Sequence record: PZ445554.1
Length of the DNA stretch: 64,000 bases
From: a phage
Direction: 5' to 3' (one strand)
Position numbers and translations under genes: made by a program. The notes below the pieces were generated by a model, which made no database searches, was not told the DNA's origin, and saw nothing but the letters and a program-made list of their open reading frames with translations. Below are positions 6,899-47,158 of this stretch, piece after piece; position 1 is the first letter of the stretch, and each line of letters begins with the position of its first letter.

Positions 6899-8486
<1,588 letters not shown>

Positions 8487-42468: not shown

Positions 42469-42490
42469 GGCCCGAAGGCCTTTTATTTAA
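42466..42490. terminator. stem-loop with flanking A- and T-runs (bidirectional terminator-like)
   Basis: Stem AAAGGCC, loop CGAA, stem GGCCTTT. Confidence 0.4.
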
Positions 42491-42743
42491 AACGAATAGT
42501 TGAATCCTTAAAGAACAGCCCAGAACATACTGTTCCTTCTACTTTCTGCCCAGTAGGTCCAATAGCACGAAATCCAGTATGTTGGAAATCATTTTCAGAA
42601 CAACCAAACCAATTATATCCAGTGATTTCAATATTAGTAAAACCACTTGAAGATAAAACTTTGGTTGCATTATCAGCATCAGTACATCCTGCTAAAGACA
42701 CTGCTAATACTAATGCCGCGATAGAACGATTAATATATTTCAT
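42483..42743 (-). CDS. putative lipoprotein, 86 aa
   Basis: ATG at 42741-42743 (track start is GTG); signal peptide with lipobox LAGC. Confidence 0.5.
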   Translation of the reverse strand: MKYINRSIAALVLAVSLAGCTDADNATKVLSSSGFTNIEITGYNWFGCSENDFQHTGFRAIGPTGQKVEGTVCSGLFFKDSTIRFK

Positions 42744-42748
42744 AATTT

Positions 42749-43120
42749 TCACTTAAATTTAATGGCTTGAAGAAGACTAATAATTCTCAAGCGACTTCCT
42801 TCATCTTTAACTGTAAAAGAAAGAGGGTCACCAGATTTCATAGTGATAGTGCATTCAAAAGCAAAACCTTCGGGAACTTCTTCGAAGAAGTCAAATTCTT
42901 CATCATAAATTAGAACATTACTCTGAAAACTGTGAAGAATTTTTCCGTCATTTCCAGATGCTGTACTAATCATTGTAACATTATTACCTTTCATATCTTC
43001 AACGATAAATTCGCTTGTAGATATTACAGCATTAATAGAACCATTCCTATAAATAGCAGAAAATAGATATTTCTTTTCTTCACCTTCGCGAATGCGATAT
43101 TTCTTACCGATTTTAAACAT
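42749..43120 (-). CDS. hypothetical protein, 123 aa
   Basis: ORF track. Confidence 0.5.
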   Translation of the reverse strand: MFKIGKKYRIREGEEKKYLFSAIYRNGSINAVISTSEFIVEDMKGNNVTMISTASGNDGKILHSFQSNVLIYDEEFDFFEEVPEGFAFECTITMKSGDPLSFTVKDEGSRLRIISLLQAIKFK

Positions 43121-43301: not shown

Positions 43302-43715
43302 TTATTCCTTAAAGTGAGCTTTCAACATCTGATACAAGGACCATGCCTGTTCATCATTTTCAATAGTAACTTTCATTACAGGGAATTTAGATTGATCAGT
43401 TATCGGTGCAGATTCTTCCTGCTCTTCAGCTGCCTGGTATGGATTTTCAACTTCATTAAAGAATTCAGCTTCATTCGATGAAAGCCAAATAAAATCTTCA
43501 TCCAAAATATCTTTACCAGAAGATAGTACTAAATTTCCAGCAAATGACATAATTTTAATAGGACGCCCAAGAGCATCCACATCTAAAATTTTAAAAGGAT
43601 GCATACCTAAACGGCGTGCATAGATTCCGTTATCAGTATGGTCTTTAATAAAATTTTCTTGAGCTTGTTTATTTTTAAATTGATACCATTTATTAACTTC
43701 AAATCTAATAGCCAT
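43302..43715 (-). CDS. hypothetical protein, 137 aa
   Basis: ORF track. Confidence 0.5.
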
Positions 43716-43933
43716 TAATAAATTTCCTTCCAGTAAGTTGTGCCATCTTCAGTGATTTCACGGAATACACCATAAATTGGTTGTTTATCACCGACTTTCT
43801 CATATACATAAACCGAAGTCAAGTGAGTAAACTTGATAGTGTGTTCCTTTTGAACTACTACCAAATCTGGATCGAATAATACATCTTCAAATTCATCATT
43901 AGTGCAATTCTGAACAATTTTACGTTTCATCAT
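43715..43933 (-). CDS. hypothetical protein, 72 aa (cef position by synteny, unverified)
   Basis: ORF track, ATG start. Confidence 0.45.
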
Positions 43934-44104
43934 AATTTCCTCATTAATTGAACATTGGAGCGATGCGTTTCAGAAGAGTATCAGCGCACCTTTAACGAAT
44001 TATCCATTTTATTCTTCAAGTTGTTTTCTGTATCAGTAGTTGATATTGATATAGTACCATAATCAACTACTGATGTATATAGTTTTATGAAAAAATTTTA
44101 AACT

Positions 44105-44596
44105 TTATGCATAGCGAGCTTTGCTGTAGTGTTTAATCCAACTTTCAGGAATGACTTTGTATGTTCCTAAAAATACCGCGTTGTATAACTTAACGCCATC
44201 TTCTACCCATTGATCAGTAATGTATGCACACATAGCGCGAGTACGCTGAGGAAGTGGTTGTCCACCTTCGGTAAATTCAAACTCATAAGGAGCAATGAAC
44301 TTGATAGCTTGACCAAGTTTCCACTTAAAGTCTACACCTACATGCGAAGTATCAATCGTTTCAATTCCTTTAGCAGGAACAGCTTTCAAAAACGCAGGCT
44401 CAAGAAATTTCCATCGAACATAACCAAACTGGGGCTTAGACATTCCATCTTTAGCAATGATACGTACTTTTACTTCAGAATCTTCATCTTTAACACCGTG
44501 TTTAAGCTGAATGCTTACAACTTCGACCAATTTTCCTGCTGCTTTAGAACGGGATTTATCAGATACACGAGCAATTTCACCGATATTAATATTCAT
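44105..44596 (-). CDS. hypothetical protein, 163 aa (motB position by synteny, unverified); paralogue of the next ORF
   Basis: C-terminal motif TDQWVEDGVKLYN shared with 44670-45173. Confidence 0.5.
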   Translation of the reverse strand: MNINIGEIARVSDKSRSKAAGKLVEVVSIQLKHGVKDEDSEVKVRIIAKDGMSKPQFGYVRWKFLEPAFLKAVPAKGIETIDTSHVGVDFKWKLGQAIKFIAPYEFEFTEGGQPLPQRTRAMCAYITDQWVEDGVKLYNAVFLGTYKVIPESWIKHYSKARYA

Positions 44597-44669
44597 AATT
44601 ATCTCTCACTTGTTAAAAAGATTTTATACTCCACAGGACCATTATACTCTGGTCCCAAGAGTTTGTAAA

Positions 44670-45173
44670 CTAGCTTACACGAACATTAATCACTGCGCTA
44701 CGAGGAACTACAGAGTATTCTCCAGCATGAACTACGTTCAGAAGTTCAACGCCATCTTCAATCCACTGGTCAGTTACCCAACCACCGACCGGATTCGCGA
44801 ATGGACGACGAATGTAAACCGCCTTACACAACAAATCAGTCGGGTCTTCAATTTTTTCAACTGGTGCCACATACATAGAAACTAAATCCATATCAATATG
44901 GAATTTTTCCTGTTCTTCTTTTTCAATTTCTGTCAATAGACTAAAATCTTTTTCATAAATAATAAGCGATGACACCATTCCATAATAGTTTCTAATTTCA
45001 ATATACATCATGCCGATAAGAATTCCGCTATTAACACTAATAACAATAAAAGGATATCCGCCAGTTAAAGCAAGAAGTTCACAAAACTTATTATGAGCTG
45101 TATTAGACAGTACCGGAAAATTCTTAATTTCATCAAATTTTTTCAATTGATAAACAGCATTATTTTTAATCAT
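44670..45173 (-). CDS. hypothetical protein, 167 aa; paralogue of the preceding ORF
   Basis: C-terminal motif TDQWIEDGVELLN; N-terminal part unrelated and hydrophobic. Confidence 0.5.
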   Translation of the reverse strand: MIKNNAVYQLKKFDEIKNFPVLSNTAHNKFCELLALTGGYPFIVISVNSGILIGMMYIEIRNYYGMVSSLIIYEKDFSLLTEIEKEEQEKFHIDMDLVSMYVAPVEKIEDPTDLLCKAVYIRRPFANPVGGWVTDQWIEDGVELLNVVHAGEYSVVPRSAVINVRVS

Positions 45174-45183
45174 AATTTTCTCT

Positions 45184-45684
45184 TTAATCTAAGGTAATAA
45201 AGCCTTTTAATTCGGCATGCGATTTGCGGAACATTACTTGATGTCCGCCAATGATAACTTGGTCATCTGGTACTTCGTATACAGCAAGATAAAATCCTTT
45301 CGAAGCTAATTCTTCACGCTCTTCTCGTATGAACCATCTCATCATATCATATTCGCTAGCGAAAGCAAAATGATAAAGAGCTATAAACCATCCTGGAATA
45401 TGATATTCTACTCCAACATAATCTTTCTTGAACTTAGTATTAATTACTATATTAGCGTTTTTAACTAATAGTTTATCTTCGTGTGGTAAAGGAATTCTTT
45501 TATTATTATCGCTATGATGCATAAAATTAGGTCTGTCATAACCTACGTGTAATAGCCACTCTTCGCTCCATGAATCTATTATACTCCTGTACGGCGTTAT
45601 TTGAACACAAAGATTTCGACGTATTGTTATAGCATCTTCATAATTAAGAATACTAAACGATGATTCAACACGATAAATTTTCAT
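45184..45684 (-). CDS. hypothetical protein, about 166 aa
   Basis: ATG at 45682-45684 with SD GAGGA (track start is TTG); early promoter at 45704-45742. Confidence 0.45.
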   Translation of the reverse strand: MKIYRVESSFSILNYEDAITIRRNLCVQITPYRSIIDSWSEEWLLHVGYDRPNFMHHSDNNKRIPLPHEDKLLVKNANIVINTKFKKDYVGVEYHIPGWFIALYHFAFASEYDMMRWFIREEREELASKGFYLAVYEVPDDQVIIGGHQVMFRKSHAELKGFITLD

Positions 45685-45703
45685 TTTATTATCCTCAGTA
45701 GCT

Positions 45704-45742
45704 ATGGTGTTATAATACCACAACTAACCGAGGAAGTAAACA
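45704..45742 (-). promoter_or_regulatory. T4 early-type promoter
   Basis: GTTTAC-17 bp-GTGGTATTATAAC. Confidence 0.5.
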
Positions 45743-45747
45743 ACTTT

Positions 45748-46431
45748 TTATCGTTTTGTTGGAAGAGATAGAGGATCGCAATCTTCCTCTGATGGAGCAT
45801 CTTCAAGACCCATAGCATATCGCAAAGCGTACTTCATCATCAGGATGTCTTTCGCACAGTCATGAATAGAATCATGTGCAACGAATCCATCTAAAGTTCC
45901 CTTTGGAAGAGGACATGTGGTCATATCACGAACAAGCAGAAGTGCTTCAATTCTGGTACGAATATCACGCTGATTCCAGAATTTACATGGTTCTAACTTA
46001 AATGTGTCAAGCTCATTCTCAGATACACCATTAAGGCGTTGAATATCACGAATGAGATCGACTAAAATTGGAAAATCAAACGACATTCCACGACACCAAC
46101 CTTGAGATTTCCAAGGATCGATATTATGCGCATTGATATAATCATTAAATTTTGCAATACCATCGATGGTGCTTACATCTTCATCTGATGGTGCAATATT
46201 TTTTCGAGCTTCAGGGGATTGATTCTTCCACCATTCGATAGTACTTTTAGTAAAAAGACGATGTCCTTTTTGGCTTTTTAAATCAAATTTGATTTTAATG
46301 CCACGTGAAACTAATTCATCAAATGTTTCAACGACTTCTGGATTAGGGTCAAAAGCAATTACAGCTAAATCAATAACAGCTGCCTTTTCGCCGCTTCCCA
46401 TTGTTTCAAAATCTATAATAAAATCAAACAT
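45748..46431 (-). CDS. dexA: exonuclease A (DEDD 3'-5' exonuclease)
   Basis: 227 aa; N-terminal DEDD exo motif IIDFETMG. Confidence 0.85.
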   Translation of the reverse strand: MFDFIIDFETMGSGEKAAVIDLAVIAFDPNPEVVETFDELVSRGIKIKFDLKSQKGHRLFTKSTIEWWKNQSPEARKNIAPSDEDVSTIDGIAKFNDYINAHNIDPWKSQGWCRGMSFDFPILVDLIRDIQRLNGVSENELDTFKLEPCKFWNQRDIRTRIEALLLVRDMTTCPLPKGTLDGFVAHDSIHDCAKDILMMKYALRYAMGLEDAPSEEDCDPLSLPTKR

Positions 46432-46673
46432 TAAATTTTCCTTGCTAAATCGCGAATTTGACCTACAGTATAGTCTTGAATATAAACTTTATTAATAGGC
46501 TCATCAATAAATTTTGCCATAGATTCAATGTCTTTTTGTATCTCTTCAAGACTGTATACTATCTTTGAAGCTTTTTCGCGAATAGTAATATTTTCAGGAC
46601 CCGGATTTTCTTCAATGACAGCTTTAACATTTGTCATAAGAGATTTAAACTGGTACCAACTCAATTCAATCAT
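46431..46673 (-). CDS. hypothetical protein, 80 aa; paralogue of the next ORF
   Basis: Shared motifs LEEIQKDI / KVYIQDYTVGQIRDL. Confidence 0.45.
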   Translation of the reverse strand: MIELSWYQFKSLMTNVKAVIEENPGPENITIREKASKIVYSLEEIQKDIESMAKFIDEPINKVYIQDYTVGQIRDLARKI

Positions 46674-46926
46674 TAATAATCGCCTTATAAAGATAGCTAA
46701 TTTCGCCTAAAATATAATCATTGATTGTAACAGTTTTCACTTCACCACAAAAGAATTCTAACGCAATTAAATCTCGTTCAATTTCTTCTAATTGAAGCCT
46801 CAACTTACTAGATTCTATTTTTACAGTTTCACGATTTTTGCTATAAGCAATTTCATAAATTTCGCTTACTTTATCTTGAAGAAGATAAAACTGATCTTTA
46901 GTTATTTCCACGAATAGCTTCCTCAA
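46666..46926 (-). CDS. hypothetical protein, 81-86 aa; paralogue of the previous ORF (start uncertain)
   Basis: Track start is TTG; possible GTG start at 46911 with SD AGGAAG; shared motifs LEEIERDL / KTVTINDYILGEISYL. Confidence 0.4.
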   Translation of the reverse strand: MRKLFVEITKDQFYLLQDKVSEIYEIAYSKNRETVKIESSKLRLQLEEIERDLIALEFFCGEVKTVTINDYILGEISYLYKAIIND

Positions 46927-47158
46927 ATTTAATCAGTAATTTACAAACACTTTCATCTAGTGTAATTACCGTATCTGTATTACTGTGATATGATTGTTTT
47001 TCAATTCGTTTAATTGCTAATATAGTATCACTTATAAGATAAAGCTTATGAAGGAGCTCAGCTCCTGTTACCATAACATTAAGATTATCTTGCTTATTAG
47101 TATGCTTCCTTATACCATCTATTAGACGATTTAAATATTTTGAATTGATGTTAATCAT
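46898..47158 (-). CDS. hypothetical protein, 86 aa
   Basis: ORF track. Confidence 0.45.
   Translation of the reverse strand: MININSKYLNRLIDGIRKHTNKQDNLNVMVTGAELLHKLYLISDTILAIKRIEKQSYHSNTDTVITLDESVCKLLIKFEEAIRGNN

Follow-up and report, generated by a model that had tools for sequence, protein, structure and literature searches.

The closest described relatives of the two genes considered here are motB and motB.1 of phage T4. According to Patterson-West et al. [quoted passage not shown] It was also found to alter the H-NS footprint on DNA (PMC6070864, PMC7827196). T4 MotB.1 is dispensable in the laboratory (PMC6070864, PMC7827196, PMC12152347). Working with an alignment of 102 phage homologues, Son et al. 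(2021, Viruses 13:84, PMC7827196) described a common C-terminal domain (CTD) and different N-terminal domains (NTDs) in MotB and MotB.1, and proposed a duplication. In MotB, a KOW fold was predicted for the NTD and an OB-fold, possibly binding DNA itself, for the CTD. A 2025 paper (PMC12152347) assigned an LSm-like fold to the NTD of MotB.1.

The relationship of the two genes, noticed again in the DNA studied here by a sequence-only reading, is real and was correctly interpreted, but it was already published in 2021 and therefore adds little as a discovery. Added here are the predicted fold of the CTD, its apparent restriction to T4-like phages, a copy number of one to three, the pairing of NTDs and CTDs, the shifts of a short motif (motif 1) and a likely frameshift in the T4 reference. 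These refinements are modest and useful for work on host takeover by T4.

The motB locus

The window, i.e. the whole analysed stretch of 64,000 nucleotides (PZ445554.1), originates from a Tequatrovirus and is 99% identical to Shigella phage SHFML-11. In the 1.9-kb stretch around motB and motB.1 the identity to this phage is 99.2%, and 584 phage records match. On the minus strand the gene order in the direction of transcription is dexA, motB.2, the 167-aa ORF, the 163-aa ORF, cef, goF, 39.2 and gene 39; T4 and the annotated relative JK08 have the same order from dexA to gene 39. Both ORFs named in the sequence-only reading, of 163 and 167 aa, lie on the minus strand where it had placed them. 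The features are as follows, in window coordinates.

45184..45684, minus strand: motB.2 (context), 95% identical to T4 MotB.2
44670..45173, minus strand: motB.1 orthologue, 167-aa acidic protein (pI 4.95) with predicted LSm-like barrel, motif 1 and shared CTD (phrog_2333)
44922..45173, minus strand: MotB.1 NTD, aa 1-84, predicted LSm-like/SH3-like barrel of the GoF/MotB.1/Frd.2 family (AF2, hhalign, Foldseek)
44850..44915, minus strand: 66-nt (22-aa) segment without counterpart in T4 motB.1, encoding motif 1 HIDMDLVSMYVAPVEK (alignment gap)
44679..44849, minus strand: MotB.1 CTD, aa 109-165, predicted compact five-stranded barrel (AF2; CTD HMM E 4.7e-35)
44697..44783, minus strand: MotB.1 core motif GWVTDQWIEDGVELLNVVHAGEYSVVPRS, aa 131-159 (BLASTP, shuffle test, hhalign)
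44641..44669, minus strand: promoter-like TTTACA-17-TATAAT, within the 73 bp that separate the stop of motB.1 from the start of motB
44105..44596, minus strand: motB, 163-aa basic protein (pI 9.3) with predicted KOW-like N-terminal barrel and shared CTD (PF17613, phrog_1671)
44390..44596, minus strand: MotB NTD, aa 1-69, predicted KOW/SH3-like five-stranded barrel
44321..44389, minus strand: MotB inter-domain linker, aa 70-92, low-confidence (pLDDT <50 at residues 70-86), containing ETIDTSHVGVDF
44108..44320, minus strand: MotB CTD, aa 93-163, predicted five-stranded barrel with long beta1-beta2 hairpin (AF2; CTD HMM E 2.7e-27)
44141..44227, minus strand: MotB core motif AYITDQWVEDGVKLYNAVFLGTYKVIPES, aa 124-152 (BLASTP E 9e-10; shuffle z=15)

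The 163-aa ORF matches the Pfam family PF17613 ('motB, modifier of transcription') over its full length, residues 1-163 on profile positions 1-162, with 312.9 bits (E 5.2e-94) at a gathering cut-off of 25; it also matches phrog_1671 (E 3e-75) and is 87% identical to T4 MotB. That the first copy is motB had been offered as a guess, and the full-length family match, the identity to T4 MotB and the position between cef and dexA bear it out. The 167-aa ORF occupies the slot between motB and motB.2. Over aa 1-138 it shares 64% identity with T4 MotB.1 (UniProt P39415), and phrog_2333 matches its residues 1-166 (E 7.6e-82). PF17613 reaches 32.8 bits on this protein and covers only residues 125-161 (profile positions 117-153), so that a domain is shared while the protein is not a full member of the MotB family.

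Since motB.2 ends 10 nt upstream of motB.1, these two genes are probably co-transcribed. In sequence motB.2 is unrelated to motB and motB.1, and the CTD HMM gave no match on it; its relatives bear precomputed PF26820 assignments. Many records label MotB.2 as 'transcriptional regulator', yet neither MotB nor MotB.1 resembles it. The motB.2 ORF reaches a TTG at 45723 (45184-45723, minus strand), and the ATG equivalent to that of T4 is at 45684. An assignment of MotB.2 as an SRA domain was rejected (Pfam E 0.1, below threshold; the PDB profile search found no solved relative); if true, it would be of interest in a phage with hydroxymethylcytosine DNA.

With 11 matches to the 12 consensus positions, the promoter-like site upstream of motB is the best of the region scanned and the only one to stand out. 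Its sequence is identical in T4. A 'promoter' feature of phage wV7 lies somewhere under the 509-nt match of this phage (H101), at an unspecified position. Because the whole scan was not enriched over shuffles (13 sites found, 13.1 expected), the case for this site rests on its conservation and position. With this candidate promoter, motB would have an early transcription start of its own. No terminator was detected in a scan of 43600-46600. The genes motB and cef are separated by 170 bp, and this gap contains a long inverted repeat, CAGTAGTTGAT...ATCAACTACTG, at 44030-44078; owing to its AT-richness and long loop, the repeat was missed by the simple scan.

Some further observations concern the surroundings. 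The genes dexA.1 and dexA.2 (46431-46673 and 46666-46926, minus strand) are tandem paralogues as well (30% identity over 80 aa, E 1.9e-7), and a third ORF of 86 aa (46898-47158), located before dda, has no counterpart in the annotation of T4 or JK08. Between gene 39 and an LSm-like ORF lies an 89-aa ORF (42483-42752, minus strand) with a lipoprotein-like signal MKIMKYINRSIAALVLAVSLAGC, the length of which is unlike the T4 39.1 annotation.

Significance and extent of the C-terminal similarity

The similarity of the two proteins is centred on a core of 29 residues. BLASTP aligned MotB 124-152 with MotB.1 131-159 with 16 of 29 residues identical (55%, E 9e-10). The Smith-Waterman score of this core is 98, compared to 28.7 +/- 4.6 in shuffled sequences, and none of 5000 shuffles reached it (z=15, Gumbel P ~2e-9). 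At the profile level, when the families of MotB and LSm-type MotB.1 were compared, hhalign paired MotB 120-155 with MotB.1 127-162 over 36 columns (probability 97.6%, E 3.5e-12), and a second profile comparison resulted in E 4.5e-16. The shared C-terminal segment claimed from the letters is thus found well beyond shuffled controls. The invariant residues of the CTD are L, G, D-Q-W-x-E-x-G, L-x-N-x-V and G. A six-frame HMM scan of the 64-kb window detected no third copy of the CTD (next best E 0.29).

A chance or compositional match of two unrelated small proteins could be argued from the pairwise identity, which extends over only 29 residues, and from the segment just upstream, which is not significant. 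It is refuted by the shuffles and by both profile comparisons; in addition, the 167-aa ORF exceeds the gathering threshold of PF17613, and intermediates that combine a KOW NTD with a MotB.1-type CTD bridge the two families. We therefore give it practically no credence.

One detail had to be corrected. The pairing of FIAPYEFEF in MotB with YVAPVEKIE in MotB.1, by which the segment had been introduced, is not significant (472 of 5000 shuffles reach its score) and is in the wrong register. According to hhalign and MAFFT with bridging family members, MotB KLGQAIKFIAPYEF stands opposite MotB.1 LLCKAVYIRRPF (LGQAIKFIAP with LLCKAVYIRRP), and HVGVDF opposite HIDMDL. The N-terminal halves, which had been described as different, score 20, below the average of 24 for shuffled sequences (z=-1), and so show no sequence similarity.

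Predicted folds of the domains

AlphaFold2 models were built from family alignments, with a mean pLDDT of 78.5 for MotB.1 and 80.2 for MotB. Both consist of two small barrels with a low-confidence linker in between. In the CTD of MotB, strands are predicted at residues 97-108, 117-132, 135-142 and 145-150 and, following a 3-10 turn, at 154-157 (block-mean pLDDT of residues 91-160, 82-94); in that of MotB.1 they are at 118-121, 129-139, 142-149 and 152-157 and, again after a 3-10 turn, at 161-165 (residues 111-160, 83-91). The common pattern comprises beta1, a long beta2-beta3 hairpin, beta4, a three-residue helical turn and beta5, and the main difference is the longer beta1-beta2 hairpin of MotB. 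A turn before beta5 together with the lack of a helix between beta3 and beta4 is an SH3-like rather than an OB arrangement. As both models have the 3-10 turn between beta4 and beta5 and no beta3-beta4 helix, a five-stranded barrel of SH3-like (Tudor/KOW-like) type is our prediction for the ~55-70 residues of the CTD.

Fold comparisons were made with Foldseek using the whole full-length models, and the matches come without residue ranges, so the two barrels are not separated in them. Among viral models, MotB (E 2.3e-7), relatives of MotB.1 and further KOW proteins of phages were matched, as was, weakly for the MotB.1 model, GoF (E 7.7e-3). EF-P was among the fold matches, and one of these entries (5wxk_B) is domain I, a KOW-like barrel, alone. 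Sequence searches of the PDB with MotB, MotB.1, the CTD profile and the MotB.2 profile returned nothing meaningful and no relative with a solved structure.

These results bear on a different reading of the CTD. Son et al. predicted an OB-fold able to bind DNA (PMC7827196), and the CTD itself could accordingly be the non-specific DNA binder, in which case MotB and MotB.1 would both remodel the nucleoid and their N-terminal barrels would only modulate this activity. The turn and helix arrangement of both models is SH3-like, the EF-P entry mentioned above is a KOW-like domain alone, and apart from EF-P and eIF5A, for which the matched domain is unreported, neither top-60 fold list includes an OB-fold protein. 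Together with the charge of the domain, discussed below, this makes a DNA-binding OB-fold unlikely, and we prefer the SH3-like assignment.

For the NTD of MotB five strands are predicted (AF2). The KOW motif RVSxxSRSKAAG is represented in the MotB ORF by V11, S12, S15, S17 and G21, all of them invariant among the aligned family members; the 167-aa ORF does not have this motif, as is also reflected by the NTD comparison (z=-1). In the NTD of MotB.1 a helix (24-37) and strands at 42-49, 55-61, 67-73 and 80-83 are predicted instead. By hhalign it is related to the inner domain of a 180-aa class of MotB.1 proteins (probability 92.6%, E 4.6e-7); a direct BLASTP of goF against motB.1 was not significant (E 0.14). 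The N-terminal half of the 167-aa ORF had been called hydrophobic, and the model predicts that this part forms the buried beta-strands of a small barrel. A membrane helix was considered and rejected: the most hydrophobic 19 residues (42-60, Kyte-Doolittle 1.85) are two predicted beta-strands (42-49, 55-61), and the block-mean pLDDT of residues 31-60 is 80-85.

Given the homology between the NTD of MotB.1 and the LSm-like barrel in the 180-aa class, the 'distinct NTD' categories of 2021 may be versions of one fold, assuming that the 180-aa class is Category 4. A 123-aa ORF of the window (42749-43120, minus strand), which is absent from T4 at this place, was matched by the LSm-like inner-domain HMM of the 180-aa class (E 4.4e-7). 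Three members of the LSm-like barrel family are hence located within 2.5 kb, namely this ORF, goF and motB.1.

A short motif that changes its place

Protein and DNA alignments agree that the window MotB.1 has 22 residues more than T4 MotB.1, EEQEKFHIDMDLVSMYVAPVEK. The corresponding 66 nt carry an 8-nt direct repeat TTGAAAAA on both sides, and the shorter T4-type motB.1 could therefore be the product of a slippage deletion. Motif 1, of ~17 residues with the pattern hydrophobic-D-x-D-hydrophobic-x-S-x-Y-x-x-P, is encoded within this segment; its HMM detects residues 92-108 of the window protein with 28.8 bits, in a region where pLDDT is <50 (residues 87-92 and 98-106). It recurs in relatives, among them P0030, P0047 and P0229, but is absent from T4-type MotB.1. 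Members of the commonest MotB.1 class carry it at their very N-terminus, ahead of the LSm barrel, and some other relatives have it between KOW and CTD. In MotB the linker ETIDTSHVGVDF aligns with motif 1 of MotB.1-type proteins (HVGVDF with HIDMDL); the motif-1 HMM, built from MotB.1-type sequences, does not detect this linker.

The T4 reference sequence of motB.1

In the T4 reference NC_000866.4 (identical in sequence to AF158101.6), motB.1 is annotated as a protein of 119 aa and '13.8 kDa'. We compared the region, record positions 7142-7650 (L002 3643-4151; counterpart of window 44670-45173), base by base with two re-sequenced T4 genomes, MT984581 and KJ477684. The sole difference over 509 nt is one extra base in the reference, on the coding strand GGATTGGAAGATGG versus GGATTGAAGATGG. 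It shifts the frame of motB.1 just before EDGVELLNVVHAGEYSVVPRS and by this removes the most conserved part of the CTD. Eleven further records of T4, T4T, RB55 and RB59 have 508 nt and not 509. Without the extra base the protein has 143 aa, which is the MotB.1 annotated in MT984581, and this form is present on 256 contigs, as opposed to two with the 119-aa form. The motB.1 annotation of the T4 reference is thus almost certainly one base off.

This concerns experimental work. In the 2025 study (PMC12152347) the motB.1 constructs were designed from NC_000866.4 coordinates and made by GenScript, and a monomer of 13.8 kDa was reported, so that a truncated MotB.1 was probably studied. Most of the conserved CTD is probably missing from the 'T4 MotB.1' used so far for modelling and expression.

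Distribution and domain arrangements

A search with the CTD profile against 1.84 billion representative proteins gave 30 matches at E up to 1e-3, ~27 of them real. All of these are small proteins apparently from T4-like phages, and the CTD therefore appears to be specific for this group. In related phages (25 IMG/VR loci and annotated genomes) one, two or three CTD genes are present, which answers the question of copy number and agrees with the description of the region between gene 39 and dexA as plastic. The tandem order motB.1 then motB was found in 17 of the 25 IMG/VR loci (L005-L021) as well as in T4 and JS10. Fourteen of these loci (L005, L006, L010-L021) have, like T4 and JS10, the pair itself, and three (L007-L009), RB69-like in appearance, carry three genes with the domains LSm-CTD, KOW-CTD and KOW-CTD. 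In the other eight, and in Klebsiella phage EI, a lone KOW-CTD gene is located between cef and dexA.

Signs of gene decay were observed, too. P0244 (43 aa) consists of the N-terminus of MotB.2 fused to the C-terminus of MotB.1 and is a deletion remnant, i.e. a decay product of motB.1. On the IMG/VR contig L006 (5598-6114), the LSm and CTD parts of motB.1 are in different reading frames.

Among 248 cluster representatives, at least six arrangements of the domains were counted:

KOW-CTD: 107 of 248 representatives
motif1-LSm-CTD: 78 of 248
LSm-CTD: 24 of 248
KOW-motif1-CTD: 13 of 248
LSm-motif1-CTD (the form in the window): 7 of 248
motif1-LSm-LSm-CTD: 7 of 248

The CTD family thereby offers a compact natural example of domain shuffling. 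The signatures KLYN (MotB type) and ELLN (MotB.1 type) of the CTD are kept across all 248 representatives. The LSm-like NTD is combined with the ELLN type only (115 of 115), whereas KOW is found with both CTD types (104 and 15), which argues for a replacement of the NTD in one of the paralogous lineages.

At the DNA level the cores of the window motB and motB.1 are 58.6% identical; the longest common word has 12 nt, and 13 of 29 third codon positions agree. The first two values point to an old duplication without recent gene conversion. It is true that the two genes are adjacent and in the same orientation, that T4-like phages recombine readily and that deletion remnants such as P0244 exist, all of which would fit a shared segment created by recent gene conversion or recombination between neighbours. 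With so diverged a core, so few conserved third positions and two CTD signatures that are retained throughout the representatives, this origin is very improbable, though less so than the chance match dismissed above. An old duplication remains our reading: motB and motB.1 are in all likelihood ancient tandem paralogues and early genes of a T4-like phage. The alternative posed beforehand, duplication with divergence or a domain swap, is resolved in favour of both, the former by the old divergence of the core and the latter by the combinations of NTD and CTD.

In the most likely history, duplication would have affected one original KOW-CTD gene, of the kind that Klebsiella-type relatives still have as their only copy. 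The CTDs would then have diverged into the MotB type and the MotB.1 type, and in the MotB.1 lineage an LSm-like barrel would have replaced the KOW barrel or been inserted. The direction of this replacement is read from the existing combinations rather than from a rooted tree, the CTD being too short for robust phylogeny.

A possible division of functions

The paralogues differ strongly in charge (pI 9.3 for MotB, 4.95 for MotB.1), and this contrast suggests a simple, testable split of function between NTD and CTD. The CTD of MotB.1 is itself acidic (pI 5.0, net charge -2), and this speaks against non-specific DNA binding by the CTD. The residues invariant in both families (D, Q, W, E, G, L, N, V) form no basic patch; D, Q, W and E in particular do not make up a basic surface. 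Taken together, charge contrast and non-basic invariant residues make the CTD more likely a docking or self-association module than a DNA binder.

On this basis the CTD might serve as a common docking or oligomerisation module of MotB and MotB.1, the basic KOW barrel would contact DNA, and the LSm-like barrel of the acidic protein would make a different contact, possibly with RNA. We put this division of labour forward tentatively. A more specific proposal, which we regard as rather doubtful, is that the CTD is a phage-specific SH3/Tudor-like adaptor. Its DQWxExG...LxNxV face would dock onto one host target, e.g. H-NS/StpA, to which different NTD barrels (KOW, one or two LSm-like) would be delivered, and the mobile 17-residue motif 1 would provide a second contact.

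Comparison with known systems

The motB of the window has the length of its T4 counterpart and the equal slot between cef and motB.1. Differences are limited to a variable loop (EFTEGGQPLPQ versus NFIKDDGRVVY) and a few substitutions. Given 87% identity, the non-specific DNA binding and the copurification with H-NS and StpA may be expected for the window protein, too. The window MotB.1 agrees with T4 MotB.1 ('Category 2' of Son et al. 2021) in its LSm-like NTD, its slot and its CTD subtype, and differs from it by the 22 additional residues with motif 1 between NTD and CTD. The window protein also retains the full C-terminus, unlike the T4 reference entry with its truncation to 119 aa. The remnant P0244 resembles the 29-aa RB69 peptide of Son et al.

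By its NTD, MotB.1 is a member of the LSm-like GoF/Frd.2 family (PMC12152347), of which the window also has goF (43302-43715). GoF and Frd.2 have other C-terminal domains, and within this family the MotB CTD is found only in the MotB.1 lineage. As predicted pairs of small barrels, MotB and MotB.1 can be likened to known proteins with tandem SH3-like barrels, such as the tandem Tudor of 53BP1, KOW6-KOW7 of Spt5, the SH3-like tandem of KIN17 and EF-P/eIF5A.
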